Shown here one piece after another: positions 1 through 63,149 of a stretch of DNA of 64,000 nt. The stretch comes from Amoebophrya sp. A120 (Eukaryota > Protista > Dinoflagellata). The stretch lies in contig CAJINV010000005.1 of the NCBI GenBank assembly GCA_905178155.1, positions 3,292,833 to 3,356,832 on the forward strand, given 5' to 3'. Made by a program: the position numbers and the translations under genes. How positions within the stretch are numbered: the stretch's first letter is position 1; each line of letters starts with the position of its first letter. Below the pieces are notes generated by a model. The model was given only the letters and a program-made list of their open reading frames with translations, had not been told where the DNA came from and searched no databases.

Positions 1-194
1 TGCAAGAATAGCAACAGGAAAAGGCCGGATCTTGCAACTCTTGCATTACAAATTCGGCACAGATTCCCTTTCCCATGCTCTTTAGCGCTTCCAAAATTTG
101 TCATGCGAGGCAGCTTCACTGTGTGGACGTTGGTGCTCATTTTGCATGACAAATCATGTAACAGTATGAGAATGTAACAGTTGAGAACGCCATA
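1..194. mobile_element. Introner, right part only (family of 23841)
   Basis: Ends TGTAACAGTTGAGAACGCCATA, like the right IR at 24063-24099. Contains TTGTCATGC/GCATGACAA motifs, and coding sequence resumes at 200. Confidence 0.75.
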
Positions 195-199
195 GCGCA

Positions 200-3100: not shown

Positions 3101-6015
3101 ATATGCTCCTCCGCTACCTGGCCGCGCGGTTGCGGGGCGAGGGCGGAGACAGCGAGTCGAGCAGTCTGGTCCTGGGGCACTTAGCTTCCGTCCCGGATTC
3201 ACAAGTCGCGGCGCTCTGCGACCGACATTTCATCCAGCTGTATGCGAGTTGTCTGGTGCAGTTGTCAAATTTCACGGACGTAGTGCTAGCAACCACTGCG
3301 ACCACCGGGAAAATGGCCTACAGTAGTACAATTTCTACCGCGTCCTTTGGAGGCGCCGGGGGTTCTGGCGGTGGTGTCAGTAGCCCGACCGCGTCGACAC
3401 GGAGTTCATTGGTCCTCAACGGTAGACTGCCGTCGGAAGAGCAGGGCTTGCTTGCAAGTGCGACGAGGGAAATAAATGATGGTGGCTCGCCGTCTTCACC
3501 TGCGAGCAAAAACCAACCGCAGAATCCAGGAACGACCAGGAACAACAAAAAGCACCGAACCAGGAGTACGAGCGATAATTTCAGTTTCCAGGAGCCAATG
3601 CTTTTTTCCGGCTCTTCGCAGAACAGCGGACTGGACTTGATAACTCCCGGGGTCGAACAGTTGCACGAGGTGGCGCGGAAACAGAACGAGCTGCTCTGGG
3701 CGCTGCAGAAAGTTTTAGAGGCAAGTGGAAATCCGTCTATGGCGTTTGCGATGGAAAGGCACTTCGGGCTTGTCGACAGAGCTGGAGCGCAAGAACAGCA
3801 AAACAACTTTGGAGGTGGTGGTCCTGCTCAAACGAATAAAAAAACATCTTATTCGACTTCGACTTCGCAGGAGCTCCTGCTACCGGACGACATGGTTGTG
3901 GAATCGTTGGTGGCTTTGTTCACCCAGTTTCACCCGAAAAAGATCCTGCAAATGGCCGACTTTTTCCGGACGGGCGTGAACGCAGAATCTCTGCACCGGC
4001 AGGGAATTGCGTTGGGAATTCTGGCACAGATGATTGCGTGCATCGACGTGCAGCAAGGTTCAGATCATGAAACACGGCATCAACCGTCGAATTATAGTAC
4101 ACAAGAGCAAGAAGCGGTGGATGCCAAAAATTTTCATTCCGGCGAGGGGCAGCTGTTGCTGGACTGTATTCGCAATTTCGTTCCCTTCGCGAAAACCAGT
4201 TTGGAGGAGAGCAACCGGAAGAAGCTACAGCAACATCGCGAGGTTCTTCTAGACAACGCGTTCCTGCAGCGACGATCGGTCAGGGCGTTGTCCTATCTGT
4301 TCGTCGCACTAGCGAATCCGCACAACGTCGCGTTTTTCGCCCATTTAGACGCCGACTTGACCACCCGGACGCTCAAAATCGCGTTGGAAAAACAGGACCA
4401 GGATACCGACACGGTTGCCGAGGCAGTTGAAGCGCTATCGAAGTGCGTCCTGGCGGTGGGGAGTATGCATTGCAAATACATAGAAATCTTCTGGGTCTGG
4501 AAGGGGGCAAACTTGTCGTGATGCTCTCTGCCAGTCTTCACACAAAATAAATCTGGCGTGCATGAATAGAAAAAGCTGTGCTCACGACTTTTGGCCACGC
4601 TGCGAGCAGATCTCTCATGCAGAATAGGCATCGTCGTGAAGCTCTTGCAGAAGCAGAACCTGTGACGTTGCGCCTTGCATGCCAAACCTTCCGTGCCTTG
4701 CAAAACCGGCATCACAGACATCTGCAAGCTTCCAGACCCAGCAGACCTGTATAATTTGCATTGGATAGGAGAGTTTTCCAAGTTTGCGGCGGAACAAGAA
4801 TCGACACTGTTTCAGAGAAAAGAACATCACAATGGTGCGATGAATGGCAACGGGCATAGTGCTTTTCACGGCAGCTACATGGAAGATCACGCGAGCAACG
4901 CCCTGGACCTACTGGATCACGTGTTTGATGCAGGGAATTATATCACGAACGCAGCGACTGCTGCGGATCTCATCGACATCTTCGCGCCAGACCCACGGGC
5001 TGCCGGAACCAGCCCCTTGAAGAACGGAACTACAGGACCACGATCAGGAGGAAAAGAACTAGAGACTTCTCATCAACCTTATACCACAACCGCAGCGAAG
5101 TGGAAGAAGTTGCTGCTCGATCGCTGCTTCGAGCGGCTTGGCGGTTTGTTGGAGCGCCCCGACGCGAGAATACGGGCCCGCGCCATGGACCTGATGGGAA
5201 GTATGTCCTCCGGTTTGTTTCTGGAACAGGTGTCCGGGGGGACCTCGTCCAGCCCTTCTACGAGGAACAAAAACCAAAACGTCCGCGCAGATGAAGATGA
5301 TTATATCCTGTCTCCGAGCAAAGCCGCCAGGCTGAACACCCCTGGCGAGGCGCTGCTCCGGCGCAACAGCATTCGCTGCTGCATCCACATTGCGGACGAG
5401 AACGTCGGCACGCGGGGCGCCGCCACCGCTTGTCTCGAGAACCTCTGCCGCAAGTTCGCCGAAGGCGGAACCACGCCCGCTGCCCGCTCGGTCATGCGCG
5501 CGCCGGATTGCTTTGTGCAAATGGTTACAACTACGACTGGTGCATCAGACTACGTGGATGAAGTAGATGCACAGAATGCGCAACAAGCGGCGACAATCAC
5601 AATTATGGACGTCTCCGAGCTTGGCCGCGTGCTTCGAACGTATGTGTCGCCTTTGCTGGAAGCGGTTCTTCTCGCCGACCACGAAAGCAAAAAATCCCCG
5701 TCTGCCCAGGTGGACGCCCTGTTCAGTCCGACGAGGTCGCGAACCGTGCAGCAGACGTTGTGGCGGGAGCATTTGGAGGTTTGTGAACAGTACCTGTTGG
5801 AGGAGTACGCGGAGCAACTGCACGTTTCCGCGGGGTTCTGCGCGGTCTTCGTGCTTCGGGCCGCAAAGGTGGCCTTGCGGGGCAAAACGGAAGATCCGGT
5901 GACGGAGGCGGACTTTGAAAATCTGAGTCGAAAATTGCTGCATCTCCTGTCCACGGAAGAAACCGAGTTGCTCCCGGTATTGGCCGAACTGGCGAGATGC
6001 CAGGCGAGTGGGTGA
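200..6015 (+). CDS. Large HEAT-repeat protein, possibly maestro/MROH1-like (5' end lies outside the window)
   Basis: Exons 200-398, 608-4463 and 4773-6015. GT-AG intron 399-607 and introner 4464-4767(+5) both join in frame. HEAT-like segments include IYPRLGDSDPSVQEVAKNAFQHLF, LLERPDARIRARAMDLMG and IHIADENVGTRGAATACLENL. Family assignment is from recalled resemblance only. Confidence 0.6.
4464..4767. mobile_element. Introner, family A
   Basis: IRs contain CTGGGTCTGGAAG/CTTCCAGACCCAG. Flanks GGGAG/GGAGA are degenerate. Removing 309 nt is in frame; a 306-nt GT-AG alternative (4463-4768) is too. Confidence 0.85.
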
Positions 6016-7169
6016 TATCATCGGATGTGGATGAAGGAGGAGATATGATCTACCTGCGATGATGTAGTTCACCATCGGAAAGAATCTTTGTTGACAGTGT
6101 GTATAGTAAAGTCGTTTTTCTCCTCGAAATATCGAAGAAATAAAGCTACCTCTTGGCATGGTGATGTCGGTTCAAGAAAAGTTGAAAATGGATTTCCAAG
6201 AAAAAGTTGCGATAGCTCCACGGTATGAATTGTTGTGAGGGAAGGTGGGTAGGATTCAAGACTGTGACAGACTACGGTCCGGCTCGAAGTCGCCTGTTGC
6301 CATGTGTCATATTAAACACCTCGAAGGACGACGACAAAAAAACGTAGATGGCTCAATACAGTTGCCACTTATTACAAAAAAAACTAAAATGAAAATCATG
6401 AAGAAAAAGAACTGGATTGCTTTGTTTTTTGGGAGTGTTAGATGAAAAAGTGCGCTTCCTAGTTGTGTATCTACTTTATTTACTTGAGAGTGAGAGAAAC
6501 AGAAATTTGGAGCGTGGGAACATCAAAGAATCGTCACTGCATCGGCCGCGAGAGGATCAAAACTGCGCCCTGAAGATTGGGCACTCGTCGCATAATTTCT
6601 CAACTGTGGGCTCGAGAGAGAGTGAGTACAAAGGTTCGAAGCGCTATACGAGTAGAAGCGCAAAAAACGGTTGCGATGGCGTGGTGTGTCATCCTAGGAA
6701 TTCGAGCATATGTTTTCGACGTTTGTCTCCGGGAAGAGCGAGCATCAAAAGTGGCACGTTTTATGCCTCATAGGAAGAGGGGCAGCTGCTCTCTACAATG
6801 ATAATGAATTAGGACGTCACTTACCAGTTTCGTCTACATCTAGAAGAGCTTGCAATTCAGTGGGAAAAGTCACCCACAAGCAGATGCACAAAGTGAAGCA
6901 GTTCTATTTTCAAAAAAAGTTCGGCACCAATTATCGAAAATCGATGTCGCAGTCTTCTTGCAGCTGAAGCGTAGGGGCGCCTGGAAGCTCATCTTGCGCG
7001 ATTTTTGCAGATTGTCCTTCAGACCACCGTCGTACCAGGAGCTGTTGTTTATTCCGCTGCGACAAAGAAGTCGAGGGGGACAGCAACACAATAACAAAGA
7101 AAGCAGCACCTCCTTACAGCGAGCCATTTATTGGTAAACCTAGACCCACTGTCCAGCACGACCACAAGC

Positions 7170-10100
7170 ATGACCACGCTGGAACACCAGGAGAACCTGG
7201 TGAAAACCGCCGCTGCGGCGCGTCGCCGCGGTCTCCGCGACATCTCCAACACGATCGCGTCGGATATGGAATTCTCAGGCGTTTTTACATCCTCGTTTGC
7301 TGTTACATGATTTGTCATACGAAATTCCCATCAGCATCGAACTCGATCCACACGATGATCAAGCTACTTTGCATGTTGACAAATTCTTCAGGCACTACGA
7401 TGGCATTGAAATCCTTGTTGCCAAACCTGTAATTCAGAGCGCGGAAGCTTCGTCCCTCTTCCGCTTTCGCTTTTGCTCTTGTTGCGTCCTCATGAATTTG
7501 CGTTGTACCAGCCGGCACTGTCCTAAGAACGTTTGAGCACTCCATAGTGGATGCAAACTGCCATGCTGGAGCAGCTTTAGTAGCTGGGCCTACTACTACA
7601 AAGCAGACCTCCACCGGGAAAATAAATTGTGTAGTTCCAATCAGTACTAACTTGAAGACTACAACGAGTACGACAACCATCAACCCAGCTGGTTCCACGA
7701 CGACGGTGTATGTGCCGGAGGGAGCTGTTGTGCCGCTGACCAAGCCCTTGGTCGTTCCGGGACGAGGAGCAGCTGGTGATGCTAGTCCAGTAGTGCAACA
7801 ACAACACGGGTGGTCCTCGGTGGCGGAAAGCAATAATGGCGGTGCCGGTGATGTGGGTGTGAAGACAACTACTTCTGATGTGGAAAATTATCAATCGAGT
7901 AATTCCAACATGAACATGTTCTTGGAGAATCAAAATCCGGTCGTGCACGACAACTACGTTGGAGGTCAACAGTGTCAGAATCAAAATCACCATCTGCACG
8001 ACGGTGGGCACGGTCAGGATAACGGAGTTGTCCACGTTAAGAACCAATTGCAGGCCGTTCCTGCTCCAGTTCATCATTACCTTGAACCGCAAGAACAACC
8101 CTTTGTCGAACAGCGGACGCACGAAATAAACACCGCTTCCAAAGCAAACATCTTTGCAAAAAACCAGTCGGAGCAGATGAACGAGCTCTGTCCCGAAGCG
8201 AAGTTTTTACTGGAGAAAGTGACTGCGGTGGCGCTGCAAAGGGAGCAGCAAGAAGTCGTGGAGCAACTCTACTCGCTCGACGATGAATTGGACGGCGCGG
8301 TGGGGGTAGTTTCAACAGCGGCAGATGAAGCTGTAGCTGGGGCGAAAACTACAAACTCGAAAACGAATTTTGGAAACAACAACAGCAGCAGCAGCAACCA
8401 AAACCAAGAAGGAGATGAAAATCTTTCCGACATCGCCCCACCGAGTTCCGCCAATCCGTTCGAGGGCTCGGATTGCGAAACGCACCTGACCCACACCAGC
8501 AAAATCTACTCGGAAACCGCGTACAATGAGCTGCTGATGGATCCCTACCGCTCCGATTTCATTCTACCCCGGGACAACGAGCACGTGCAGCCGGTGGACC
8601 GGTCGAATCCCTGGCATAGCGGTGAGGTCGTCGCGGCCGCGCCGGAGCATCAAGGTGGAGCCCCGCCCCGGCCTCCTCCTGCCCTAGGTGGAACAAGACG
8701 AACTACGCAGAGGGTCGTGTTGGACAACAACTACGGAGAAATAAATCAAAATGATATTACCGGTGGTCAGGAGGTCCGCGGCCAGACCCAGATGAACAAC
8801 AACGACGAAGATCTTGGTAGAGCCATTGGTCTCCCCAGAACCTCCAGGGCCGAACTGGTCGCGACACAAAGAACAACATCAAGTACAGAGAACTTGTCTT
8901 CCTCCGCTGGACGAGGACAAGCTGCTGTCAACGACCGGCACGAGGACCCCGCCGGCCGGGGACCGAAGAAGTCGTTTCTTGGAATGTACAGTAAGGAGGC
9001 TTTGGAAGAGGAGGGGGTTTCGAACCCGCAGTTCTGGGAGCTCGACAACAGTGAAGAAGACGAAGTTGCGAATTTGATGGACGTCGTGCAGATTGAACAT
9101 CAGCAGAAGATCAACATTTTTACCAACGGTGGTTGCAGGGAAGACCAGGTCAACTTTCACTTTGACACGGAATTTACACCGTCCTTGATGGGAACTACAG
9201 TTGTCACGACCGACACAACCTCCGGCGCTGCTTTCGCGATGGTGCAGAATACAACTGCAGCTCACAACTACCAAAATAACTTGCAGCACCAAGTACTAGA
9301 GCAGGACTTCGTTTTTCACCGCGAAAACTTTCACCGGCTGGAACAAAACTTCGAGAACTTAACCCGGTTCCGGAACCGAAATCATGCAGCACCTCCTGAT
9401 GCCTCGTCGAATGCTGTGCGAGGACCCAATATGCACAACAGCAGCTCGTCTGCAACTGCAGCTTCTGGTTCTGCCAGCAGCAGTTCTAGTAGCAGCATGA
9501 TCCACCAGAATGCCACAGCGAGCTACGCGGCCGCCAACTCCTTTGTGGCACAGCAGATGCAGATGCAAATAATGCAGCAGCAGAATCAACCTCAAGGATT
9601 TGGATTTCACCAAATGAACCAAATTAATCAGCACGACCACCAAGGTCCTCGTGGCTACCCGCAAGGTGTGCCGACCGCTTCTGCCACCGCAAGAACGTTC
9701 GGGTACGGCGATTCGGCTCTTTCCAGCACAGCGCGAACGGAAAGAACGGAACAGCAGCGGCTACAACAACAGACTGCCGGATTTGATTTTCATGACTTGG
9801 GTGGAACAAACAGCAACGTATTGTCTGCAAGAAACGCGGTGCAGCAACGCAATAGCCGTGGCCCGTTGGACATTCGGGACCTCGCAAGCGTCACAGCCGA
9901 CCAGCTGCAGCAACTGGTGCAACAGCGCGGAACTACATTAAACAGTAGTGCTGCCCAACATCAAAATCAAAATCATGCACCTGCGAACACTTATGTTCAG
10001 GACCACAACGGCATCGTCCAGCATGTGGCCGGCAGTTCTTTCCACCTCCCGCAGTTACCCATCCCGCCGCACGAACAGCGGTCACGTGACCCGTTCCCTA

Positions 10101-16570: not shown

Positions 16571-16632
16571 TTCGCACGTTCCTAGAACCAAGTCCTAGAA
16601 ATAGTTTTTCGCACGTTCCTAGAACCAAGTCC
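16571..16632. repeat. Short direct repeat, 2 x 25 bp
   Basis: TTCGCACGTTCCTAGAACCAAGTCC occurs twice, intergenic. Confidence 0.8.
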
Positions 16633-36330: not shown

Positions 36331-36594
36331 AGGATATGGGCGACAATATGGATATGGTGGCGAGACACCATGACCGTAATTAAGGTTGTGGTCTGCTTTC
36401 TCGGTCGAAGTACAATTTGCAACGTTTTTTTGAGTCCATTTTTTTTTAGTTCGCTAGAAGAGCAGTGGCTCGTCGGTCCGGCGAGCGATGGTTTGTTGTT
36501 TCGACTCGCATTCTTGGACCCAATCTGCGAATAAAAAAAGCAAACTGGGGCCACGCATCTCTATCATGAGTGCTAATTTTTTTTTTTCCATGTT

Positions 36595-50683: not shown

Positions 50684-53600
50684 ATGGGCCGCGTTTCGAC
50701 GTTTTTTCCATCAAACCGTTCTCTCGCGTTGGCGACAGCCGTGGGTGCGGTCTCCCATCTGGTGGACCTTGTCCACTCGGTGGACGCAGCCTCCCCCCTG
50801 CGGACCCACGAGAACCAGAAGTTTTGGGACAAGCTGAGAGAGGGCACAGAAAACACCAGCAATGGAGGTGGTGCAACCGAACAAGAGGAGAAAATGGCGC
50901 AGCGGGAGAGGTTGTTTGACCGGGCGCTAGAGCTAGCGACGGCGCGCTCGTCGGGAAGTAGCTCCTCTTCTGCAGCTGGCAGTGGGAAAATTTTACCAGC
51001 AGAAGACGAAGAACGTGAATACGCAGCGGTGGTGGAAATAAAGTCAGCGAAAGATCAGGTTGAGAGCAGTCAAAGAACGTCGTCTCCAAGCACGACTACG
51101 GCCAACGAGAAAGACCAGGACAAGGACAGCGAGAACGGCACTATGAACCTGCAGACCACCGACCCCGAGATTGCGAAGTTGCTTCTGCAGGCCTCGTGTC
51201 AAATGTAAAAATGTCTAGGACTGGAAGAGTCATGCTGTTTTTGCATGACACAGAAGGTCTGGCATGGAAGCTCTAGCATCACAGGTTCCGAGAAGCTTCC
51301 GCAATGCCGAATCCGCATGACAAATCCCCCTTTTTGGTGACAGAAAGCGGGCAGCTTTTGCTACCTATGCATGAGAGATCTTTCTGTGTTCTGAAATGCG
51401 CATCACAAGTTTGTACTCTTCCAGACCCAGACATATTTGCAATGCATACCTCGGAACAGCTGCGCACCGCGTCCCACATCGTGTACCAACACGTGAATCA
51501 CGTGGCACTCGCGGCGAAAAAGCAGAAAAACAACCTCCCCGTCCACGAGGAGTTGAGGCTCCGGATCATGAGGGCCAAATGTCGGAAAAAAGACTACAAA
51601 AATTTGCAAACTTCTTTTTTTCCCATGGCGAGGAACGCCACACACCGTGGCGCGTTGTGCTCCCTGGCTTCAAGTCATGCGTGGGCTATTTTTCCAGTTT
51701 GCTTCGCGATTCACTTCATATTTTAAGCGCTTTGCTGAAGTTCGCGGGCTTCCTCTCATCCCGATTGGAGGTTGTGTGGTGGGCGCAGTTAGTTTTCTAT
51801 TCCGTTTGCCGGATCGACAACACCATCGACCCTGTGATCATATACAAGGCGCTTTCCGGTTTTTCCGGTTTGCCTTGTTGCTCCTTTTAAATTTACCAAA
51901 AAAAGTTCCCAACTTCATACCCTTTCAAAAAGTTTCCGTAAACACGAGCGGAGTCGGAAAGATTTTGCGAATGTTTCCGAGAGTTTTCGTTCTCTTTTTT
52001 TTCTCTTTTCATTTTTTTTCGCGAAAATCGATTTTTGTCATTTTTTGAATTTGGGTCTTTTTGCTCCATCGAACGCGTCATAGCATGCGTGTTCGAAGTA
52101 GGCGGCTTCAAAACCGCGTGGGCTTCTCGTTTCTTTCTCGCCTAGTAAAGTTTTCTTGTGGGTTTTTGCAATGTTTCTGCAATGACACAAGACCACACCT
52201 GGGCGGGACGTTTCCTTTTCGCTTTGCCATGCGCTTTCTTCCAAGTTGTTTTTTTGGCCGCTCTCCTATTGGGTGGCGGCCTTGTAAATATTTCGGTCTT
52301 TTTTCCAAGGCAGTCATAATCAGGCCTCGGCGCTTCAAGAGGAGTCCGATTGGATTTTGGATTCCAAAGCATACCATCCGGCCCCCTGGCGTTAACTGAA
52401 AGCAAGAAAACCAGAACGACCCACCTTGTTCGCATCTCAACACCACGGCCAAACGGCTCGCCTTGTCCCCACCTAGATTCGCCGTTCGCTGAAAGCGAGA
52501 AAACCAGAACGACCCGCCTGGTTCGCATCTCAGTCCATCGGCATCATTGCGAAAGCGGTCGGGGCATGCCTGGTATGCTGGGGAAAAATAAAAACAAAGA
52601 GAAAGAAAGCCAAACGGCCCGCCTCTTCCCCCTCTAAAACCACCGGCGTGCCGCCGCGGCCTCGTTGCCATGCTGCTGCCTCACGCGTTTGCGCGTTGGG
52701 CGCCTACGTAATCCGCCCGGGGCTGGCGCGTGTACACGCAGCCCCGATGGTGTGGGGCGCACGCCTTTTGTGGTGTGCATGCCCAGCATCACAGCCATAC
52801 GGCTCGCCTTTTCCCCACCTAAGTCCCCCGCTCGCTGAAAGCGAGAAAACCAGAACGACCCGCCTGCTCTCGTCTATCTGCGCCCAGTCCCTTCCTGTTT
52901 CTATCTCGGTCGTGCCGGTTGCTTTTCTTGATAGTTTACGACTTGCGTCCTCTCTGTTTCTTAAGTTACAGCAGCGCCTTTGTTTCTAAAGTTATGATCG
53001 TGCTAGACTGTTACTAAAGTTATGGTCTACGACCATGGCAGCGACTTGCTCTCTGCGATCTACTTGCTCGTCGACCGCGATGGCAAAGGCGGCAGAGTCC
53101 AACGCGATCGCTTTCCAGGCAGTCATAATCAGATCGATTTCGGTCTTTTTTCCACGCGATCGATTTCGGTCTTTTTTCCAAGGCAGTCATAATCAGGCCT
53201 CGGCGCTTCAAGAGGAGTCCGACTGGATATTGGATTCCAAAGCAAAACTGCTGGATTACGAGGACGAAGTCACCCTGAAGAAGGACAAAACGGCCCGGAT
53301 CCATATGAGAGTGGTGTACAACTCGAACTCTCCCTCTACCTCATTTGTGTTATGCAAAATAAAAATATAAATACTATTACTAAGTTATTCTATTCACCCG
53401 ACAGCGACACCTTGTTCGTCAGCACTCCTTGCATCGACAAATTTTGGAACCTCGAATTATAGGACTACAATCCGCATGCGCATGCAGATTTGTCATGTGG
53501 AAGCCCCTTATTTATATTTCCTGCTGTTGCTTCTGCTTGTGTTGCTGCTCAGGCCCTTCAAATGAGGGGCAGCAGGGGGAGGTCTGCACACTCATAACCC

Positions 53601-54781
53601 ACCAACTGGAACCATTAATGGAACCCGAAGTGGCCACCATGGGAGACGTTCTGACAAACTGCAGGAAGGGACGGGAAGCAGCGGGGGATGTGATTAAGTA
53701 ATAGTTTTTGTTGATGATGTGTTGTTGTCATGCGTAGGGAATTTTAATGAATCGTTATCGTACTTGATTCGTCCTCCGCCTTCCTGATGAAAGTATCTTC
53801 TTCATGCTGCCTGTCAGGGTAGTGGCAGGAGGAGCATCCATGCGATTCTATTTCTAGCAAGAAACTGTAAGACCGATCTAAATCATACAGCCCCAAGTAG
53901 ATACAAAAATAAACCCACCAGGCGCGACCTGTACCACCCGCGGGCCGACAAGGTCCGCGTGAGTAAGGAGGTGAAGGAGGTGGCGAGAGAGCTGCAGGAC
54001 GTCGCTGGGGAGATCCGCATATCCTGTGCAAAAGTATCGTAGTCGTACTCGTATAAATGCATTACAAATTTCCTCAGCATGAGAGATAAAATTTGTAATG
54101 CTGATTTACCTTGAGAGAAAGATTTGTAATGCATGATTGCAATACCAATAGAATACGAGTGCGATGCTTTTGGACAGGATACCGCAGCGAATACATGAAG
54201 ATGATCATGGGCTTTGCTAACGCGATATCAAATGCAAAAGTGTCTGGGTCAGGAAGAATGCAAGATCTGTCATGCATATTTCTCATGACCCATGATGCCT
54301 GTAATGCATGGCCTAGCATCGCAGACTTTTAGAGGGCTTCCAGATGCACCTTCCGCATGAGAAAACCCTGTCCGTGTAGCGCAAATTGTGCCCCTCTTGC
54401 TGGTCATGCAATACAAATTTTTGTCGAGTCCAAAAACAGCATGACAAGTTGCAATCTTCCAGACCCAGATATTTTTGCAGTTGATACGCGATCGTGGAAA
54501 ATTTTTCGGAGAACAAACCGGCGCATCATTCCGCGGGCGGGATGAAAAACAATCTGGTAGAGCTACAGGTGAAGGAGAAGGAAAAAAGTTTGGCGAAAAC
54601 GGATCCGGGTATTAACATTAAGGCGGGTGATCAAACGATCTCAACATCATCCGCAACCACGTCGAGTAGTAGTACACGGATCATTTCAAGGAAGACAAAC
54701 AGCAGGGCCGCGGCGGGCTCAAGAACAAGGTCGTCGGAGACTTCGGAGGAGAAAACTTTGCCAGATGTGTATGCTTTTTGA
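50684..54781 (+). CDS. Hypothetical protein with four introners and a 1.6-kb GT-AG intron
   Basis: Exons 50684-51196, 51454-51580, 53183-53303, 53602-53697, 53922-54019, 54187-54225 and 54492-54781 stay in one frame. The 3' end is uncertain. Confidence 0.6.
51197..51448. mobile_element. Introner, family A (TGT start variant)
   Basis: Interior closely similar to 10753, with exact DR CCTCG. Confidence 0.92.
52291..53244 (+). repeat. 80-bp direct repeat of a splice acceptor plus exon start, flanking a repeat-rich spacer
   Basis: 52291-52370 vs about 53164-53244. Internal GCTGAAAGCGAGAAAACCAGAACGACC repeats near 52396, 52488 and 52835. Confidence 0.8.
53304..53596. mobile_element. Introner (family of 13346)
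   Basis: TATGAGAGTGGTGTACA...TGCACACTCATA with flanks ATCCA/ACCCA. Confidence 0.85.
54020..54181. mobile_element. Introner, family E
   Basis: TATCCTGTGCAAAAGTATCG...CGATGCTTTTGGACAGGATA with exact DR CCGCA. Confidence 0.93.
54226..54486. mobile_element. Introner, family A
   Basis: Family A IRs with exact DR CGCGA. Confidence 0.93.
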
Positions 54782-55743
54782 GATCGATCGAGTCTCCTCG
54801 ACCATGTGGTTTTTATATTGATCGGTGATTCTTATTTCGCGTTCACACAACAACGTACGACTACGATTAACAATTCCCTTACAAAAACATCAACCTCGAG
54901 AATACAGAAAGTTACTTGCACAGATATCTAAAGGGTGTTGAGAGCTCTTTCTTGCTCACTTCACCACACGATCTACATCAAACACAATTTCACGACCAAT
55001 GAGCTCCATGCACTCGAAAGAGGCTGCTGCATGGGCAGCTCCATATCAACATAGAGATAGACGAGGACGAACTGAAGATGGAGCGAAAAATAACGTCAAA
55101 ACGACCATCAAAACGCGTAGCAGGATGGATGCTGCTCCTGTTAGAAGTGATGATAACACAGTTTGTGGTCAACGTTCCGCGCTCCGTGTTGGGTACAACT
55201 GCTTTTCGAGGCCAGTACCACTGTTGCGACGACCACAACCAGTGGCATTTTTGAGTGCTTGTTCGTTGTTTCATCTCGGGATAAACTTGAAGCCGTCGGC
55301 GCGTTAATTGGTTTATTCCAGGTCAGCATCAGAAAAAGAACTGGAAAAGCATATAGCATTAGCATATTGCAAGAAATAGCAAGATGGATCTTCACCTTTA
55401 CTGAGAAGCTTCTCAAATAGGTATAGGACTAAGTAGTATCACAATTTCACTGTGTTTTTCCAACTCACTTCGCATCTTCGGTGCAGTGACATGTTCATCT
55501 TGATCGGCTCTCAAACAAAAAAAACGTGTGACTATACTGAAAAAAATACTAGAAGTTCTCACTTTTGGTTTTGCCGCTGTGAAATTCGCATGAATCCCCA
55601 TGCATATATAAAGATGAATAAAATTCGCCACTGAGCCACCGTCGTATTATTTATTTTCCCACTCAGATATTAGTCTGTCATATGTGATAAGGAGTTGTTT
55701 TTTCCAGCACTTGTATGCACAAATCCGATACAAAATTTTCAAG

Positions 55744-58700
55744 ATGGTTTTCCTGCTGTCTGAAGAGGATTTCCACCGGCTTTCGAAGCCGATGGAAAAA
55801 CGGGTGCGGTACCTGGAAGAGCAGGTCACACTCCTGACCAAGGCGCTCCACGACGCAAACCTGGTCGAGATTGGCTCGCCGAACGCGTGCGGAGTGGACT
55901 TGGAATTCATGGAGGAAAATGGATCATGTGCTGGGCTGCAGGACACCGACATGATATTAAGCGGCCATCAAGAGATGAACCACGAGCACAAAAAGATGCG
56001 GGCTACGGGTCGTGAAGTAGATGATATAGAAGTTTCCTCTTCTTCTTGTCGGAATATTACTTCTTTTACCGGAAAAATACAGAGGTGTGACACGACGACA
56101 ACGCACACGACAGATATCAAGAACACCAAGAAAGCGGTCAAAGAGCAAGATGTAGTCAAAAACCCATTTGAAGAGGACATTGCGAATTTCAAACTCGACG
56201 ACCTCGAAATAGAAATCGACGACGACGCAGAGGACGGGTTGGCGCTCAAGCCGCATCCCGCAACCGAGCTTCCCCTGGGAGGTGGAGACGCGATGAACAA
56301 AAATAACGATAAAAAACAAAAACCTGCGAACACTTCTAGAAATGCGGCGCTTCATCTGCCGGATCAGCAGAAACAAAACGAGGCCGAGGCGAAGCGCGAG
56401 CAAATATATAACCCTGACTCACCGGGGTTCACTCTCAACGAGCTAGACGGGATAGAGGACCTCAACACACGCCTGCAGCAGGAAGTGGAATATCCAGTGC
56501 AACAAATATGATGTCTGGGAGGTCCGCCTCTGGAACATAATTCCAACTTGTGATGCGGAGTTGTCAGGAGACGAGGAGGAGGACAAAAAAGATGTCCATG
56601 TTCGATTCAGACTAGGCATGGAAATAAAGCCTCCGCGGAATATGCAATGCTTTGTGTGCATTGCAATGCTGGGTTTTTTATAGGGTGCAAAAAGGGCGTG
56701 ACAAATATGTTTTCTTCGGGAGGACCCAGACATGTTTGATATGGAATCAGGAGGAAGCAAATTGGGGGCGGAAGAACTCGCGAGTGGGGCAGCAGGGGTA
56801 CAGTCTTTTACTTTAATGTATCAGTCTGGTTCTTCTTCTTTCTTCTTCTTGATAGTCGATGTTGGAGTAGCTGTCAGACTTTCTGTGCCGCTGCTTGAAA
56901 AAATTTATTTGTTCTATGCCACACACAGCCTGCCCGTCGGCGAGACGAGCATGGTGGGGGCAGCTCTTTGAGCACTTCTAAACAGGAAACAAACAAAACG
57001 GACGAGGGAAGCAATAAGTTGTCCTTCTTACCGTTTTTGAGCAAGACGTCCACAACAAGTGGTATGCTCCCTGGTACCGGCGTGTCCTCGTCCTCTTCCT
57101 CTTCTTCTTCATCCCGCGCGGGCCTCGTCAATAAAGGTGAAAATAAAGTCGACCTTCAGACCAGATCCTTCCAAAACAAAACCGCCAATATTAGAGAGAA
57201 CATCAAAACGAGCAGTGCCAGCCGCCGGGATGTTGAGCAAGATCGTGGTCCTAGCGCTATCAAAAGTACGAGGGGGCGTCAGGAAGAAAAGGAAGCAACT
57301 GCTTTGAAGGTGGAGCGAAGTTCTGGTGGTGGCGCTGCTGTAATTTCCATGCGGGAAGGCGGTTTACCGAGCCAAAGAGTGCTGCTGCCCAATTCATCAT
57401 CATCATCCCGAGGCTTAGCTGCTCGGCGGTCCCGGTCTGCGAGACGGCCTCTGCGGTCCCGTGAACGGACGGGCGGGACGAATTACCCGCCAGAGAGCAG
57501 TTCTAGTAGAACGACCAGGAGCAGAAGACCGGCGGCCCCACCAGTGGGTGTGAGCAGGTACGCAGATCACCTGTCCGAGCCGCGCAACAAACACAGAAGT
57601 CGGGAGGACCGCGAGCGGCGAAGACATTCGCCGATCTCCTCCCGGCTCCTGGCGGCGGAAGAAAGAAACAAACTGGTCGAGCTGCCCCACATGCGGACCC
57701 AGCGACCCATCTCCGAACGGGTTTTGGAAGCCGAGGAAAAAAACAATCGGAAAAACGTACGACCTGCTCAGAATTAAATGATACAATCCCAAACGGCATA
57801 GTTATAGACTCTTCCTTGATTTGAAGATTATTGTTTTTCATGAACTTGCGCTTTACTATACAAAGTTCGTGAGGCGGGTATTTATTTTGGCCGCTCCAGA
57901 ACTTGATGTCCTGCGTATACTTCCTGTCGTGATAAGAGGAACGAGAGGCTGCCAGATCGTGCCTTTTGCTTTTTGCATAGATTTAGATAGGCTTGCGTTT
58001 TATTTGTCGTCACCTTTGAGGTTGTATTTGTCACTACACCTGAGCAGGTCATAAAACGTGGTGAGCTCTATTTCGGCGAGAATTCAGCTGGAGGAGGGAC
58101 ATCAACCACGGACTTCTACTATGAACTGCAAAAGTAGCGCACTAGTATAAATTGCATTACAAATCGGCTCAGCATTACAAATTAAATTTGTAATGCTGAT
58201 TTCCCTGAACACCTAGATTTGTAATGCATAACTGCAATTAGTACGAGTACGATACTTTTGCACAGGATATCTACTTCTCGTGTCGACCGCAGGAGGTCGA
58301 GAAGTGCTTTGCGTTCTACTACACGAACACGAGCAGCTTCTGCTGCGGAAAGGAACGAACACGAAGCACAACGCTCTGCGTTGTTCAACACCAAAAATCC
58401 GCGGCGGTTTTCCCTCGAGAGCAGGAAAGACAAAGAGACACCCAAAACTCCTTCGAAGTCGAACAGTGAACAAGTTTTACAGGTGGTGGAGGCCACAGGC
58501 AACATAGGCATCATATGAACTGCAAAAATGTCTGGGTCTGGAAGAGTTGGAACTTGTCATGCGAATTCATTCTGGAATAGGCAAAAATTTATATTGCATA
58601 AGCACCAAGAGCTTCCCATTTATTGCCACGCAAATAGGGAATTTCTCATGCGGGATAGACATCAGGAGGCCTGCGCAAAACCTGTAATGCTTTTGCGTGC

Positions 58701-58966
58701 ATTAGAGACCAGTGAGTTGCGTGATCGAGAAGATGCATGACAAACTCCTGCAATCTTCCAGACCCAGACATTTTTGCATTTGATACATCAAGTTTGAAGG
58801 CGAAAAAAAGCAGGACAAGAAGGAGGATACCAGACCACCGTACTCGATCTTCAGTAGCGGACACAACAAGGGCGGGCCCACTAACAAGGGGAATTATAAA
58901 CCACCTGCCAAAGTCGTAACGGTGCTACCACCACCGTTTATCCCGACGAAAAACAAGGAAAGGTAG
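55744..58966 (+). CDS. Hypothetical low-complexity (S/R-rich) protein
   Basis: Exons 55744-56490, 56747-56796, 56986-57756, 58088-58119, 58275-58513 and 58791-58966 are in frame after removing three introners and two GT-AG introns. Confidence 0.55.
56491..56741. mobile_element. Introner, family A-like, degenerate
   Basis: TATC..ATGTCTGGG / CCCAGACATGTTTGATA with exact DR TGGAA. Confidence 0.88.
58120..58269. mobile_element. Introner, family E (150 bp, smallest complete copy here)
   Basis: Interior homologous to 54020, with exact DR TCTAC. Confidence 0.92.
58514..58785. mobile_element. Introner, family A
   Basis: Family A IRs with exact DR CATCA. Confidence 0.93.
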
Positions 58967-59725
58967 GAGCGAGTGGTTGTATGCATATGCCACCGCATCA
59001 TGCGCTCATTTCTCTTTAGTAGTCTACTTCGAGCAATGAGAATGACATCAAACAACAATAATTCGGAGGTAGCACATTTCTTTATTACTTCTGCACCCAG
59101 ATGATAGAGTTAGAGTTAGAGATAGAAGCTAGCTCTGTAAAAAGCAGCCTCACTCTGGTGGAGATGGTCCTCAACATGGACGCCGGTCGTCCTCGCGCAC
59201 CATTTCTCCAGCTAGTTCTTGGGTTCCACTCCTTAGAAAAAACTCAACGCGTCAAAAATAAAGCCAATGAGTCAGAGTCGAGCGTGTGAAAGTTTGTGCG
59301 TTAATGACTGCGCTTCGCTTTTATCATGCGGTAGCGTAGTTTGAGGTTGTGGATAAGTTCTTGAGAGAAGCTTGGAGATTTGAAAATCGGGCCTTAGAAG
59401 CTTCTTGTTTCGCTCTTCTCGTGTCGGAAAGTTTAATATTTCTCGTAGAAGATGATACAGTCTGTCTCTGTCCCTCGTGCATCTCAATCATCAAGAAATT
59501 AAGCGTCGGCATTTTCACTTTGATCCTAGTATAGATGGAATTTGTTCCTTGCTTGTCAACATCTAGTGTTTTTTCTACCCCAGCGTCCTTGTTGTTTTTC
59601 TCTTGTCCAACATCGTCGTGAGGACAAGAGGTTCGCGTTCAAAAAAAGACATCATACATAAGTAGATTTTCAGCAGCAAGGAAAAATTCATCGAAATCTA
59701 AGATCGTGAAAGAACTTTAACAGCC

Positions 59726-62700
59726 ATGCCTACGGCAGCCTCAAGTTCTTCCACTAAATTTCTTCTGTCGACTACCAGCGGCGTGCAAAGCAGCAGTGCT
59801 AAAAACATGCCAGCTGCGGGTAAGATGAACAAGACTTCATCCTCCAAGGCCGCACCTCCAGCGGGGAACAAGAATATCAAGACGAAGAGCAGTAAAAAGC
59901 CCATGCTGTCTGTGAAGGAAATGCGGGAGATGAAGAAAAAGAAGATGGTGGTGCGGAAAACCACCGCAGCGGCAGCTATGAAGAAAAAACCCGCCGCCTC
60001 TGGTGCAACTGCTTGGTATTGCGGACGACGGAACAAGAACACCCAGACAAAACAAGGGGAAGCGAAATCGAACAAATCGTCGAAAGGAAAGACGAAAACA
60101 CATGCCAAAAAAGAAGCAACCGAGGAGGAAGAAGACGAAGAGGACGATTCTTCAGAAGACGACACAGACTCAGACGAAGACCCGCGGTTGAAGTGGCCCG
60201 CGCTGGAGTCGAACCCCGAGGCGTTCACGAGTTTCATGCACCGCGTGGGCGTCGCAAAGCAGTTATCGACTGCAAAAATGTCTGGGTCTGGAAGGATGTA
60301 ACATGTGATGCGCATTTCGGAACACACAAAAATTTCTCATGCAGAGGTAGCAAAAGCTGCTCACTTTCTGTCACCAAAGTGGGGGATTTGTCATGCGGGT
60401 TCGGCATTGCGGAAGCTTCTCGAAACCTGTGATGCTAGAGCTTCCATGCCAGAGCTTCTGCGTCATGCAGAAACAGCACGACTCTTCCAGACCCAGACAT
60501 TTCTACATTTGATAGCAGTGGCAGTTCCACGACGTTTTCGACTTGGACATGCTGGACCAGATTCCGGACGTCACCGCCCTGGTTTTGCTCTACCCGATCG
60601 TGGACGAAGAGGGCGAAGCACTCATGCCCACGGCGAACCGGAAACGTACTTTCTGTTTCTATAATTTCCGACAGAATAAAGAACTTTGTCATGCATGCCT
60701 GAGTCTAAGTAACCTGTGCCTGCTGTCTGTGCATGTTTAATAAGTAAGTAACTTGTGCGAATCCAAGTGATTCTATGACGCAATTTTTGACAGCATGAAT
60801 TTTTACACGTGCTGACGAGTGAGACAAGTGATTAAAAATAAACTAACAGCAACATGCCTATGCACAAATGCTCTTACTTTACAAACAGGAGTGAAATTGT
60901 CCGATGACGCCCCCTTCTTCATCTGGCAGGGCGAAGACCTCGGGAACGCGTGTGGTACCATTTCCATTATCCATGCGGTTGCGAATATGGGAGTGTCAGG
61001 ATCGAAATCGACAAAATCGAAAAGTTTGTAATGCGTAAAACGTAGGGCACATAAGGCCTGTGTTGGAGAGGAGGCAAATGAGACCGATTGCAAGCCTGTC
61101 TAGCCCCAAACATGTATTGCCAGAGTAGCATGACAGGCGCAGTCTTCTTTGCCCAAACAGCATGACAGGCTGGATTTTGATGCTCCCAAAATTTGTCATG
61201 CGGCGGTTGGAAACTGAGGCTCCAACTGGTATCGACTTTATGCGTCGCAAATTATTTCGATTTTGTTGATTTCGATCCTGACGCTTCCATAGCGAACTGC
61301 GAGCAAGTGGCGAAAACCGTCAAGAAAAAATCCGCGCTGAGCGAGTTCTTGGCGAAATGTAAAAAGATGACGCCTATCAAGTGCAAAAATGTCTGGGTCT
61401 GGAAGAATGCGAACCTGTTATGCGTGTTGCGGATCATACAAAAATCTGTGTTGCATGACTTGCAAAAGGTCTCCACTTCTGGCCATGCTGAGAGGGCATT
61501 CCTCATGCAGAATAGGCATCACCAAGGGACTGCAGAACGTGTGATGCTACTCCCTGCATTCCAGACTTGGCGGAGCTTGGAGAAACTGCATGACAAATCT
61601 CGGAATCTTCCAGACCCAGACATATTTGCAATCCATAACGCCCGAGGAACGCGGGAGTTTGCTCGACCAAGACGAAGCAATCATGGAGCACGTACTTTTT
61701 CGTGGTAGTTGTGGTCGTGAAGATCATTGTGATATCGATATGTTGTAGTTCCATGTTGTATGCAATACAACTGTCTACTTCGGCCTAGCTAAGAAGGTCT
61801 TGACGCACGAGACCGATTTGTATCGCAGCATTGCATCTTCAGCTGGCTTTTTTCTGATGCAGAAATAATACGGGAATCATGATACATGACCAAAAATACA
61901 TCTTCAGGTTGCCGAAGTCGCTTGCGATGCGGAGTTGAACCAGACCGATTGGTACAAGTTGGTTGAGGACGATGATGACGACGACGATGACGATGAGGAG
62001 GATATTCTGTTGAAAAACGTCCCCGCCCCTCAGACTCCAGATGTTGCTGTTGGGAACTCTGCAACCCAAATCCAGGTTTTTTAAGACTCAACACGCATGA
62101 CAATTCAAAGTCTCTGCTCGTACTATCTGTAGAGTAGTGCATCGCGCAACAAGTTCTCAGCAAGGGCAGCCGCAATTATACCTTGACATTAGAGCCATCT
62201 TCTTATTGTGTTTCCAGCATATCAAGTTCCAAAACGCGACTAGGGCGGATGTATCATGTTGCAAATGTTTCAGTAGATGCAAATCTGCCTGACACCAGCG
62301 CTAGTAGGGAGGTGGAGACGTTTTTACTTGGGATAGATGAAGACGAGGATGAAGATCCGGAGGTTGATTTAGACACCGACCACCACTTCATCACCTTCAT
62401 ATGCATCACAAAATTTGAATTTCGTGCTAGAAGTAATTGCCTAATTCGAATGATCCAATGATTTTTTGCTTAACCACACTAGCATGGAAAAGAAAAACTG
62501 AATAAATGAAAAAGAAAATTGCATGTGCTGTTTGATACCCCCTCCAATGATCGACATTTTCCATTTTGCACGAAGTACTATATTGCAATTGCCGCGAGTT
62601 GTGCGAAGATGTTTTTGCGCAGCATATCTCATCGAGAAAAACAACGTGATCTATGAATTGGACGGCCTCCGCAACATGCCACTTAAGGTCGGCACGACCA

Positions 62701-63149
62701 GCAGTAGTTGCAGCACTACCTCCTCTATCAAATGCAAAAATGTCTGGGTCTGGAAGATTGGAACTTGTGATGCTAACTTTGGACTCTAGAAAAATCTGTA
62801 TTGCATGACCAGCAAGAGGAGTCTAGTTCGTGCTACGCGGGGAGGGCGTTTGTCATGCGGAGTAGGCATCAGGAAGCCCTCTCAAAATCTGTGACGCACG
62901 GCCGTGCATTGCAGAAATACTGGCTCATGCAAAACATGCATGAGAAATCTCAGAATCTTCCAGACCCAGACACTTTTACACTTCATATCCTCCTCATCTT
63001 CCAGCGCTCGTAGTACAACCACGTCGGCGAAGAACAAGTCGAATTTTCTCCCGGAGGTTGCGAAGATCATCAAAACCAAGTTCCTCAACCGTGCGCCGGA
63101 AAACATGCAGTTTGCAACCCTGGCGCTGGGCGGCAAGGAGAAATCATAA
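59726..63149 (+). CDS. UCHL3: Ubiquitin C-terminal hydrolase, peptidase C12 (UCHL3/UCHL1-like)
   Basis: WPALESNPE, WQFHDVF, ALVLLYP, catalytic Cys in QGEDLGNACGTISIIHAVAN, His in HHFITF, Asp in YELDG, and C-terminal QFATLAL. Five introners plus GT-AG introns (60646-60888, 61692-61907, and one unresolved near 62050-62270). Confidence 0.85.
60264..60514. mobile_element. Introner, family A, opposite orientation to 10753 and 51197
   Basis: Exact DR GCAGT. Joins KQ-WQFHDVF of the UCH. Confidence 0.95.
60986..61291. mobile_element. Introner, family B
   Basis: Family B IRs with exact DR GCGAA. Joins HAVAN-CEQ. Confidence 0.95.
61375..61637. mobile_element. Introner, family A
   Basis: Exact DR ACGCC. 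Joins MTP-EERG, a typical UCH segment. Confidence 0.95.
62400..62626. mobile_element. Degenerate introner between the catalytic His and Asp codons
   Basis: TATGCATCACAAAA...TTTTGCGCAGCATA with flanks CTTCA/TCTCA. Joins HHFITF-IEKNNVIYELDG. Confidence 0.88.
62726..62987. mobile_element. Introner, family A
   Basis: Family A IRs with exact DR TCCTC. Confidence 0.93.

Follow-up and report, generated by a model that had tools for sequence, protein, structure and literature searches.

TAT...ATA introner elements in a 64-kb region of Amoebophrya A120 very probably leave transcripts in a fixed register relative to their terminal stem

The elements and their host genes

The window, the whole stretch of 64,000 nucleotides of the algal parasite Amoebophrya sp. 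A120 analysed here (contig CAJINV010000005.1), contains 39 complete elements with inverted TAT...ATA ends, a hand-curated total, and a partial one at its start (Table 1). An earlier note, made from the letters of the DNA alone, had described 34 such elements; their existence is upheld, while their number was too low. As it stated, every modelled gene is interrupted, at least one element being found in each of the 11 genes, and ordinary GT-AG introns occur in the same genes (14 listed, six of them seen as transcript joints). Its identification of the elements with Amoebophrya introners is supported by deposited A120 proteins, which match the window genes (100% identity for two queries, 83% for the sister gene copy). 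Homologue searches returned same-organism proteins only, among which an element-free orthologue was not seen. The last gene carries motifs of what we take to be a ubiquitin C-terminal hydrolase-like protein; its single exons match no Pfam family.

The inverted ends stand out from chance: a detector blind to direct repeats flagged 20 candidate sites in the window, of which 18 proved true, whereas 10 shuffled versions gave 2.2 on average. Identity between the two flanks is maximal only at 5 nt, where it reaches 83% (19-30% at other lengths between 1 and 10). In 80 loci outside the window, 179 of 255 candidates chosen regardless of repeats are flanked by a perfect 5-bp repeat, and none by a repeat that is perfect at 4 or 6. 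The earlier claim that each element has a 5-bp direct repeat is too strong, the repeat being perfect in just 23 of the 39 window elements, 4/5 in seven and 3/5 or less in nine. The first three positions are T (39 of 39), A (38) and T (36), and positions 11-15 are A in 27 to 34 elements; this A-run is absent from one family. The 39 elements form five clusters with multiple members, and the core common to the families is restricted to the ends and a short inner motif. In the main family the 5' and 3' ends are conserved to an equal degree. Insertion and removal are both seen in either orientation. The only non-element sequence common to the window and the outside loci is one 140-nt stretch.

The elements are copies of transposons, non-coding and bounded by TAT...ATA inverted ends and a target-site duplication of 5 bp. 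Their class is already published, as the TAT-type introners of strain A120 (Farhat 2021). Inverted ends, a fixed duplication, both orientations and the lack of coding sequence are traits of MITE-like (non-autonomous TIR DNA transposon) copies. Seven open frames in the three long elements match no Pfam family, no transposase sharing the element ends lies within the window, no Rfam match was obtained in it, and the main-family end has no match in viral contigs.

Table 1. Elements and host genes in the window. "+5", "+6" and "+11" give the nucleotides lost in addition to the element; "1+4" and "2+3" give their split before and after it; "repeat n/5" is the number of matching bases in the direct repeat.
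Position	Strand	Feature	Evidence
1-194	+	Partial element, right arm only, truncated by the window start	Sequence; open frame resumes behind it
4464-4767	+	TAT element, repeat 2/5; 4463-4771 removed, 1+4 unambiguous; removed piece ends GT..AG, a nearer in-frame AG being skipped	Joint 4462>4772 in 4/4 runs
7170-16032	+	Host gene, 2317-residue cyclin-box protein; five elements, two GT-AG introns	Model identical to P0006 at 2317/2317 residues; Pfam
7265-7546	+	TAT element, repeat 3/5; +5	P0006 equals the 1+4 model; no transcript joint displayed, contig cover thin
10753-11003	+	Main-family TAT element, repeat 4/5; +5	Joint skips 256 in 3/4 runs; P0006
12069-12490	+	TAT element, perfect repeat; +5	Joint skips 427
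13346-13605	+	TAT element, perfect repeat; +5	Joint skips 265
14384-14593	+	TAT element within the cyclin box, repeat 3/5; 14383-14597 removed, 1+4 unambiguous, ends CT..TG	Joint 14382>14598 in 4/4 runs; Cyclin_N domain spans the site
18961-19299	+	TAT element, repeat 2/5; +5, cut 1+4 or 2+3	Joint 18958>19303 in 4/4 runs
22370-22690	+	TAT element, perfect repeat; +5	P0005
23307-23683	+	TAT element, both arms carrying insertions, terminal pairs intact; +5	P0005; arm comparison
23841-24099	+	TAT element; +5 despite an in-frame G-TAT..ATA-G option	P0005
24519-25887	+	Long TAT element (1369 nt), nested inverted repeats; +5	
25968-26120	+	TAT element, repeat 1/5; +5, cut 1+4 or 2+3	P0005
26164-26767	+	Tandem pair (26164-26443, 26449-26767) with a gap of 5 nt; both removed without leaving an exon base in between; outer cut 1+4 or 2+3	P0005
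29640-29995	+	TAC-start element, repeat 4/5; +5	Gene model only
33904-34189	+	TAC-start element, gene copy 1	Gene model only
34256-34502	+	TAT element, gene copy 1, repeat 2/5	Gene model only
35560-35858	+	TAT element, gene copy 1, repeat 4/5	Gene model only
39997-40282	+	TAT element, gene copy 2; +5	Protein length; residue behind the joint differs from P0002
40349-40608	+	TAT element, gene copy 2, repeat 2/5; 1+4 only, ends GT..TT, in-frame GT-AG option unused	P0002
41603-41921	+	TAT element, gene copy 2; +5	P0002
44540-50034	+	Host gene, DEAD-box helicase; four elements, two GT-AG introns	Summed length of all six fits the contig (847 = 847); Pfam
46153-47597	+	Long TAT element (1445 nt), DEAD-box gene, at TPGR	Summed-length test
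47636-47952	+	TAT element, DEAD-box gene	Summed-length test
48383-48712	+	TAT element, family of 47636, opposite orientation	Summed-length test
49181-49388	+	TAT element, DEAD-box gene	Summed-length test
51197-51448	+	TGT-start element, perfect repeat; +5; 91% like 60264, opposite orientation	Joint skips 257
51553-53211	+	TTG..CAA element of a second type, inverted ends gapped, repeat of 6 bp; +6	Joint skips 1665
53304-53596	+	TAT element, repeat 4/5; +5	Joint skips 298
54020-54181	+	TAT element; +5	Joint skips 167
54226-54486	+	TAT element; +5	Joint skips 266
56491-56741	+	Natural mutant, right arm 6 nt short; 56490-56751 removed (+11)	Contig coordinates; P0001; alignment
57758-58053	+	TAC-start element; +5	P0001
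58120-58269	+	TAT element; +5	P0001
58514-58785	+	TAT element; +5	P0001
60264-60514, 60986-61291, 61375-61637	+	Last gene, TAT elements 1-3 of six; model is an open 430-residue frame	Gene model only
62003-62335, 62400-62626, 62726-62987	+	Last gene, TAT elements 4-6 of six	Gene model only

Removal from transcripts

Evidence from transcript contigs and deposited proteins is available for 29 of the 39 elements. The earlier note expected the missing length to equal the element plus 5 nt, and this holds for 28 of the 29, the exception being 56491-56741, which loses 11 nt. Element plus 5 nt is removed at all ten TAT-element joints among the matches listed; in the region 44001-64000, four of 18 TAT elements have a joint among the 15 of 855 rows listed. 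These ten joints and four deposited proteins also confirm that elements disappear from transcripts without GT-AG. The note had further pointed to restoration of the reading frame by the 5-nt rule, an argument that cannot fix the length, since losses of 5 and of 11 nt are both in frame at 56491-56741.

The contigs all derive from one sample, which may share its origin with the deposited proteins, and the four runs (X1-X4) are treated as spliced RNA because GT-AG introns are missing from them, their RNA status being a guess; a GT-AG intron is also dropped within the same contig as element joints. Conversely, the DNA-like run X5 has no contig at the five element joints displayed, and its contigs run from exon into the element ends. 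In the raw RNA runs X7 and X8, 141 and 4 reads fall on element ends only, with flanks unlike those of the window. Removal is assigned with high confidence to splicing at the RNA level, measured from the terminal stem.

Register of the cut

Where the direct repeat has decayed, the place of the cut is revealed: one nucleotide before TAT and four past ATA. This 1+4 split is unambiguous in the contig joints at 4464 and 14384 and the sole solution from the deposited protein at 40349, while 1+4 or 2+3 fits the joint at 18961 and the proteins at 25968 and at the tandem pair. A cut one nucleotide before TAT is the only register common to all ten joints. GT-AG by itself fits one of the three unambiguous sites. 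A split of 0+5, which follows from the earlier claim that the extra nucleotides all lie on the 3' side, was set down beforehand as a prediction and failed against the observed joints: it is incompatible with 4464, 14384, 18961, 40349, 25968 and the tandem pair. Of the idea that 5 nt are measured from the hairpin base, mirroring the staggered cut of a transposase, only the sum survives, 1+4 being equal to the target-site duplication.

Published motifs agree with this register. In Table S4 of PMC7789003, the nine predominant non-canonical A120 motifs all begin with GT, CT, AT or TT and none with TA, the start that 0+5 would give; all nine listed for strain A25 begin with TT, which places T at intron base 2 in both strains. 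That the junction rule is 1+4 is, taken by itself, very probably correct. Our literature search found no paper stating this register; the elements themselves being described already, what is new here is the fixed register and the natural mutant.

The stem as a ruler

At 56491-56741 the right arm has lost 6 nt and the 3' cut has moved by 6 nt. ATA is intact there, the repeat is perfect and a CAG lies one base away, yet the cut uses none of these, so in this mutant neither ATA nor the repeat sets the 3' cut. According to the alignment, the +11 cut lies as far from the inner arm as is usual in the family, and the two-arm duplex pairs in a shifted register, although the fold of the whole element favours neither register (pair probabilities of 0.006 and 0). 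In whole-element folds generally, the terminal pairs close in 26 of 37 cases and do not close in 11. The +11 reading comes from this one element. Together with the splicing of both orientations and the in-frame GT-AG options left unused at five of five testable sites, it supports the structure-guided measure proposed in the note, the cut following the stem and not the repeat.

A ruler anchored on the T-run alone was rejected, as one family lacks a T-run and as the loss at element 23307 remains 5 nt despite a longer right arm. The TTG..CAA element at 51553-53211, whose joint is ambiguous over 7 nt, loses 6 nt, and the measure is therefore not one fixed number. A strict search through the window and the 80 outside loci found no further TTG/TTA element losing 6 nt; it also missed 51553 itself because of its gapped arms.

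Intron ends and host donors

In the 1+4 register 38 of the 39 elements give N-T-A-Y, and 11 of the 14 host GT-AG introns of the window start with G-T-A-Y. Intron base 2 is T in all elements; bases 4-6 are T, C/G and any. Base 1 is G in 13 of 39 window elements and in 44 of 144 oriented outside elements (exon background 29%, p 0.71); a drift of this base towards G, hinted at by the decayed repeats of the window, is unsupported in the 144. The polarity of single mismatches offers too little signal for the copies to be oriented by it. AG closes 6 of 39 and 14 of 144, only 4 of the 144 are GT-AG, every one of the 16 end dinucleotides is represented, and the first and last bases are independent (p 0.14). 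The next exon begins with a purine in 86 of 144 and 25 of 39 cases (background 55%, p about 0.27-0.28). The elements do not follow canonical U2-type ends (GT, GC or GA at the 5' end, AG at the 3' end). Even where an in-frame G-TAT..ATA-G option is available it is left unused, at five of five testable sites; 23 of the 39 elements have some GT-AG pair that is in frame and lies no more than 15 nt from their ends, and 16 have none. An A at -7 relative to the 3' cut is invariant, partly because it is built into the choice of ATA ends.

Mechanism of removal

We give about an even chance to removal from pre-mRNA by a modified U2-type spliceosome that takes both cuts from the terminal hairpin. A cut-and-paste transposase with a 5-bp stagger would insert the element, and its ends would pair in the pre-mRNA, taking the place of U1 in bringing the two ends close to each other. 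At the 5' cut the donor would be N-U-A-Y, its first base free and its register that of the host G-U-A-Y, and the 3' cut would be set four bases beyond the stem base, AG not being needed. Speculatively, the branch point would be the A at -7, which is kept even in the +11 mutant. As 1+4 equals the duplication, the protein would be unaltered by any exonic insertion, whichever way round it lies, and families would thereby be able to spread.

PMC7789003 reports U2, U4 and U6, U5 in A120, and 83 of 89 spliceosome proteins, while U1 was not found in Amoebophrya A120; a relative with predominantly GT-AG introns is reported to have U1. The most specific form of the hypothesis is put forward tentatively: a spliceosome without U1 would take the hairpin as the full intron definition, with a cut at N then U-A-Y, a branch at A-7 and ligation four bases past the stem, the ruler being matched to the 5-bp duplication. 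Against any spliceosome stand the 144 outside elements, in which there is no trace of spliceosomal end preferences, and the non-Watson-Crick pairing of terminal bases that the spliceosome is described as normally needing. Since the main-family ends are equally conserved, as transposon ends are, their TAY likeness to donors may be a coincidence; alternatively, host donors may have descended from old elements.

The strongest competitor, which we consider possible but less likely, keeps the 1+4 rule and changes the machinery: a structure-reading nuclease, RNase III-like or tRNA-endonuclease-like, would cleave both strands immediately outside the stem and an RNA ligase would join the exons, a route put forward for the nonconventional introns of euglenids and diplonemids. 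The absence of GT, AG or terminal-pair preference, the use of both orientations and the neglect of canonical options all suit it. So does the geometry, which parallels the Euglena code in its short fixed 5' spacer, its stem and its longer, slightly flexible 3' spacer, the last accommodating the +6 element; euglenid introns are, moreover, described in a review as leaving as circles and not lariats. It leaves unaccounted for a 5' cut exactly in register with the host donor motif, the T at base 2 common to A120, A25 and ordinary donors, and a spliceosome near-complete except for U1, and a tunicate lineage is reported to splice mostly non-GT-AG introns with an adapted major spliceosome. Because of the shared donor register, a second, separate pathway is no more likely than the modified spliceosome.

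A stable hairpin between short repeats is a textbook template-switching substrate, and 23 of 39 repeats are perfect; nevertheless, a repeat-guided deletion, be it a reverse transcriptase jump across the hairpin or real microhomology-guided removal, is very unlikely. The joints at 4464 and 14384 share no base and that at 18961 shares one, the perfect repeat at 56491 is ignored, and the joints repair conserved reading frames that the elements interrupt. Precise DNA excision in some cells or at some life stage, like that of ciliate internal eliminated sequences, draws on the perfect transposon ends, on runs that are only guessed to be RNA and on an X5 zero that holds only among the matches listed. 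It is most improbable: contigs with element joints lack GT-AG introns and are thus spliced RNA, X5 contigs run from exon into the element ends and none lies at the five element joints displayed, and a transposase cutting at the element ends would presumably not yield a 1+4 split. Hardly more credible are conventional GT-AG splicing at sites close by and self-splicing of the element RNA: nearby pairs are available to 23 elements and two 1+4 joints are GT-AG, but 16 elements have no such pair and the joints include CT..TG, while self-splicing sits badly with families that have only their ends and a short inner motif in common, with function in both orientations and with the lack of an Rfam match. 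Finally, the 0+5 cut of the earlier note, at the 5' edge and 5 nt past ATA as a copy of the transposase stagger, is almost certainly wrong, for although its total holds in 28 of 29 supported elements and it is compatible wherever the repeat is intact, it is excluded at the six sites named above, lacks TA- starts among the predominant Table S4 motifs and misses the 11 nt lost at 56491.

Implications

About two thirds of A120 introns are non-canonical, and the paper describing them (PMC7789003) left their borders undetermined. The fixed register (N before TAY, stem, four free bases) allows sharp tests of the removal mechanism, as it predicts the branch base, the ends of the excised circle or lariat and the splicing of arm-indel mutants, and it supplies a correction rule for tens of thousands of intron borders. 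If removal is spliceosomal, the terminal intron bases, thought nearly indispensable, would be replaceable by RNA geometry, and the loss of U1 would be explained; if it is due to a nuclease and a ligase, a dinoflagellate relative and the euglenids would have converged independently. Either machinery would offer the host a route to render exonic transposon insertions harmless. Should the U1-less reading of the hairpin be true, tens of thousands of exonic insertions would be invisible to the proteome, a third splicing code with a geometry convergent with that of Euglena would exist, and this would be the first spliceosome without constraint on either terminal base.

Comparison with known systems

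The published A120 introners (PMC7789003) resemble the window elements in their TAT start followed by about seven loose bases and an A-run, in inverted repeats of 8-20 nt and direct repeats of 3-5 nt distributed over many families, and in RNA-supported removal mixed with GT-AG introns. They differ in that the splice sites are described there as variable relative to the hairpin, with the border unknown, whereas here the register is fixed at 1+4. That paper reports no transposase found in A120; a later one describes an integrase-like TIR family. Introners of Micromonas, Aureococcus, Symbiodinium and Polarella (PMC9860276, PMC12130899, PMC11282704, bioRxiv 10.1101/2020.10.14.339549) are likewise described with inverted ends, target-site duplication, scar-free removal and, in some families, either orientation, but they carry or co-opt GT, GC or GA together with AG, neither of which the A120 elements need.

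In the tunicate Fritillaria borealis (PMC13326754), introns of transposon origin with varied ends are also reported beside a retained major spliceosome; there, unlike in A120, U1 is kept and modified and U2AF is duplicated, and at least 55% of introns have isosteric terminal pairs, whereas A120 shows no coupling of first and last bases. Hemistasiid diplonemids (PMC12621601) share base-paired intron ends and a non-canonical majority, for which RNase III with a ligase, a tRNA-type pathway or an adapted spliceosome has been proposed; their ends are G/C-rich, and the available account describes no fixed TAT register.

The nonconventional introns of Euglena follow the code N3-CDG / CH'G-N5-6, then R (Nomura 2025, PMC12501133). 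The lineages are unrelated, the euglenid CDG/CH'G pairing at bases 4-6 is not found in A120 elements, and the purine with which the following exon begins in Euglena corresponds to no clear preference in A120. Both systems nevertheless combine pairing transposon-like ends, a strict short 5' spacer and a longer 3' spacer, without GT-AG and as a second code beside ordinary introns. Euglena uses CAG/CTG with spacers of 3 and 5-6, and A120 TAT/ATA with spacers of 1 and 4; the partner of intron base 4, counted from the end, is the sixth or seventh base in Euglena and the seventh in A120.

Introner elements of the window

The window is eukaryotic DNA with its genes on the forward strand. Three query proteins returned one match each, all from Amoebophrya sp. 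A120: two are identical and the third is the sister gene copy. Inverted repeats with TAT...ATA ends were scanned for and curated by hand (the end of 18961 was adjusted; elements are named by start coordinate), which yielded 39 complete elements (150-1445 nt) and a partial one at the window start, with at least one in each of the 11 modelled genes. Element ends read T-A-T-(C/G), about six loose bases and an A-run, mirrored at the opposite end. Flank identity is 83% at 5 nt, as compared to 19-30% at other lengths from 1 to 10 (39 elements); this 5-bp repeat is perfect in 23/39, matches at 4/5 in seven and at 3/5 or worse in nine. A repeat-blind detector returned 20 candidates in the window, 18 of them true, versus 2.2 per shuffle. 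Using the end of the main family to scan metagenome contigs produced 132 outside loci, 80 with flanks; among the 255 repeat-blind candidates of these 80, a number of them false inner pairs, the 5-bp repeat is perfect in 179, and a perfect repeat at 4 or 6 nt occurs in none.

The elements form five multi-member clusters plus singletons, and the same family is found in both orientations. The first base after ATA is G in 21/39 elements and in 56 of 144 oriented outside elements, against 29% (p = 0.001 and 0.013), while the mirror position shows no corresponding C; the cause may be a splicing preference or codon-phase bias. An inner motif, GCATGAC or its complement, is present in 24/39 elements, from families not otherwise related, and seldom occurs in exons. 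It is a candidate binding site for a transposase or a splicing factor.

Removal from transcripts

Contigs of runs X1-X4, which stem from one sample and are guessed to be RNA, were aligned to 44001-64000 (X1 only) and 4201-19800. Among the joints listed, those of TAT elements cover at least four of 18 elements in the former interval and 6/7 in the latter, and all ten skip the element plus 5 nt. In the DEAD-box gene, equal model and contig distances (847) jointly determine the length removed at another four elements. GT-AG introns are missing from the same contigs that drop the elements, and the DNA-like run X5 has no contig at the displayed element joints among the matches listed. Four deposited proteins cover further elements; according to the accessible methods of PMC7789003 such A120 proteins were built from transcript alignments, and contigs and proteins, possibly of common origin, are not independent of each other. 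One of them, P0006, is identical to the model at 2317/2317 residues. Transcript-derived support extends to 29/39 elements: the total loss of element plus 5 nt claimed in the earlier note holds for 28 and fails at 56491, which loses 11 nt. For the remaining ten, removal is modelled from the open frame alone.

Register of the cut

The earlier note placed the cut at TAT and the resumption five bases past ATA (0+5); written down as a prediction beforehand, this failed at six sites. Contig joints at two elements with decayed repeats place the cut precisely one base ahead of TAT and four bases beyond ATA (1+4): 4464, with ends GT..AG, and 14384, with ends CT..TG. The contig joint at 18961 allows 1+4 or 2+3. 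Deposited proteins are fitted by 1+4 alone at 40349; for 25968 and the tandem pair 26164/26449 they fit 1+4 or 2+3. Joints and proteins thus exclude 0+5 at these six decayed-repeat sites. One base before TAT is the sole register common to all placed sites, with a hand-estimated chance of agreement among six registers of ~0.001. Table S4 of PMC7789003, as far as it is accessible, agrees with 1+4 at genome scale: all nine predominant A120 motifs begin GT, CT, AT or TT, where TA would come first under 0+5. Some of these entries may stem from a bias of the aligner towards GT, CT-AC and AT-AC, which does not readily explain AT-AT or TT-AG.

Deposited protein P0002 and the model of gene copy 2 agree at 641/642 residues, the sole mismatch being residue 139, directly after element 39997. 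No cut within 15 nt yields this residue, while the sister copy at 33904 does so under 1+4; the simplest account is a third gene copy.

Position of the 3' cut

Although element 56491 retains its ATA and a perfect repeat, removal takes 6 nt more (1677 vs 1683, contig coordinates), and the shorter joint is also found in deposited protein P0001. Between inner motif and ATA its right arm lacks 6 nt relative to the family, which means that the cut as observed preserves the spacing typical of the family; a CAG at a distance of one base is unused. In a two-arm duplex the left arm pairs with the repeat copy at an offset of six, whereas the whole-element fold supports neither register. From this single case we infer that structure may set the 3' cut. 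Element 23307, with a longer right arm and intact terminal pairs, loses the normal 5 nt; this points to the base of the stem, and not a fixed distance from the inner motif, as the measure. An in-frame, fully canonical G-TAT..ATA-G intron is offered by eight elements and is unused in 5/5 testable cases. With the register corrected and 56491 at hand as a natural mutant, the mechanistic question becomes directly testable.

Excision machinery

Removal by a U1-less spliceosome has about an even chance of being correct. It is favoured because the 1-nt offset makes introns start N-T-A-Y in 38/39 elements, in register with the G-T-A-Y of 11/14 host donors. In the accessible part of PMC7789003, predominant motifs of strain A25 all begin TT, and T at base 2 is therefore common to both strains; the A120 spliceosome is described there as nearly complete, with U1 not found. 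U1 is present in a relative with GT-AG introns, as far as the source is accessible. The spliceosome is disfavoured by the 144 outside elements (selected from the 255 candidates for a clear strand, a coding-looking joint and a repeat matching at 4 or 5 bases): base 1 is a G in 44 of them, 14 terminate in AG, each of the 16 possible end dinucleotides is represented, and the first and last base vary independently.

A nuclease-ligase route is possible, if less probable. Elements work in both orientations, and the Euglena code (PMC12501133, accessible part) has a closely similar geometry; Euglena introns reportedly leave as circles, according to the part of a review available. That the joints are template-switch artefacts, that elements are excised from DNA, or that they leave by ordinary or self-splicing are each very improbable.

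Associated features

Coordinates and observations for individual features of the window and one outside locus
Position	Feature	Observation
7170-16032	Gene	Single 2317-residue protein; cyclin box near C-terminus
9943-17458	Transcript contig	One contig spans the interval
20100-21400	Intergenic block	Short tandem and palindromic repeats; long minus-strand open frames, no Pfam match
24209-24454	GT-AG intron	Starts G-TAT; main-family right-arm remnant near 3' end; perhaps an old element that became canonical
24519-25887; 46153-47597	Long elements	Ordinary ends; >1 kb inner cargo; usual +5 removal; no Pfam match in open frames
25888-25945	Short exon duplication	Copy of 24480-24518 plus flank; adjoins 1369-nt element; retained in deposited protein
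26164-26767	Tandem pair	Same-family elements 5 nt apart; both absent from deposited protein
2305-2965 (outside locus L063)	Close element pair	Similar to 26164-26767
26800-27700; 38400-39600	Upstream stretches (approximate)	Also alike
30719-31881	Intergenic nested palindrome	Large; outer arms 247 nt, 94% complementary; not TAT type
33400-36600; 39500-42700	Tandem gene duplication	Three element insertions common to both copies
47515; 62726-62776	Run X7 (raw RNA, another study)	Main-family ends with different flanks
51553-53211	TTG..CAA element	6-bp repeat; loses 6 nt beyond the element
52290-52371	82-nt copy	Own 3' end of 51553-53211 plus next exon's start; not used as joint

The insertions common to both gene copies are older than the duplication. 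Given the 5-nt spacing, the 1+4 rule leaves a zero-length exon within the tandem pair, which would fit removal in steps (recursively) or the formation of a single large hairpin. The X7 reads indicate that the main family also exists in a related strain or organism, where it is left unspliced at one locus or more.

Comparison with known systems

The class named in the earlier note, Amoebophrya introners, is borne out: the elements fit the accessible description of A120 introner elements in PMC7789003, and the class is therefore already published. The system is real, pervasive and already described; elements, hairpins and 5-bp repeats are in print. The accessible part of that paper gives >60% of introns as non-canonical, and calls splice sites 'variable' relative to the hairpin and the border 'unknown'; the legend of its Figure S23 states 1-5 nt (A120) and 1-6 nt (A25). 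The pictures of Figures 3, 4 and S19-S25, known by their legends, may already show the offset. In a literature search outside subscription journals, no paper was found stating the 1+4 register, the host-donor match or the shifted cut in an arm mutant. Comparisons also drew on accessible parts of PMC12130899 (text, not datasets), PMC12005148, PMC11282704, PMC12621601, PMC9860276, bioRxiv 10.1101/2020.10.14.339549, PMC12501133 and PMC13326754.

The joint of the TTG..CAA element is ambiguous over 7 nt, with readings including GA..AG and TT..AG, and the element is similar to the TTA-type ends reported from strain A25. For the spliceosome, the accessible part of PMC13326754 offers a tunicate precedent in Fritillaria borealis.
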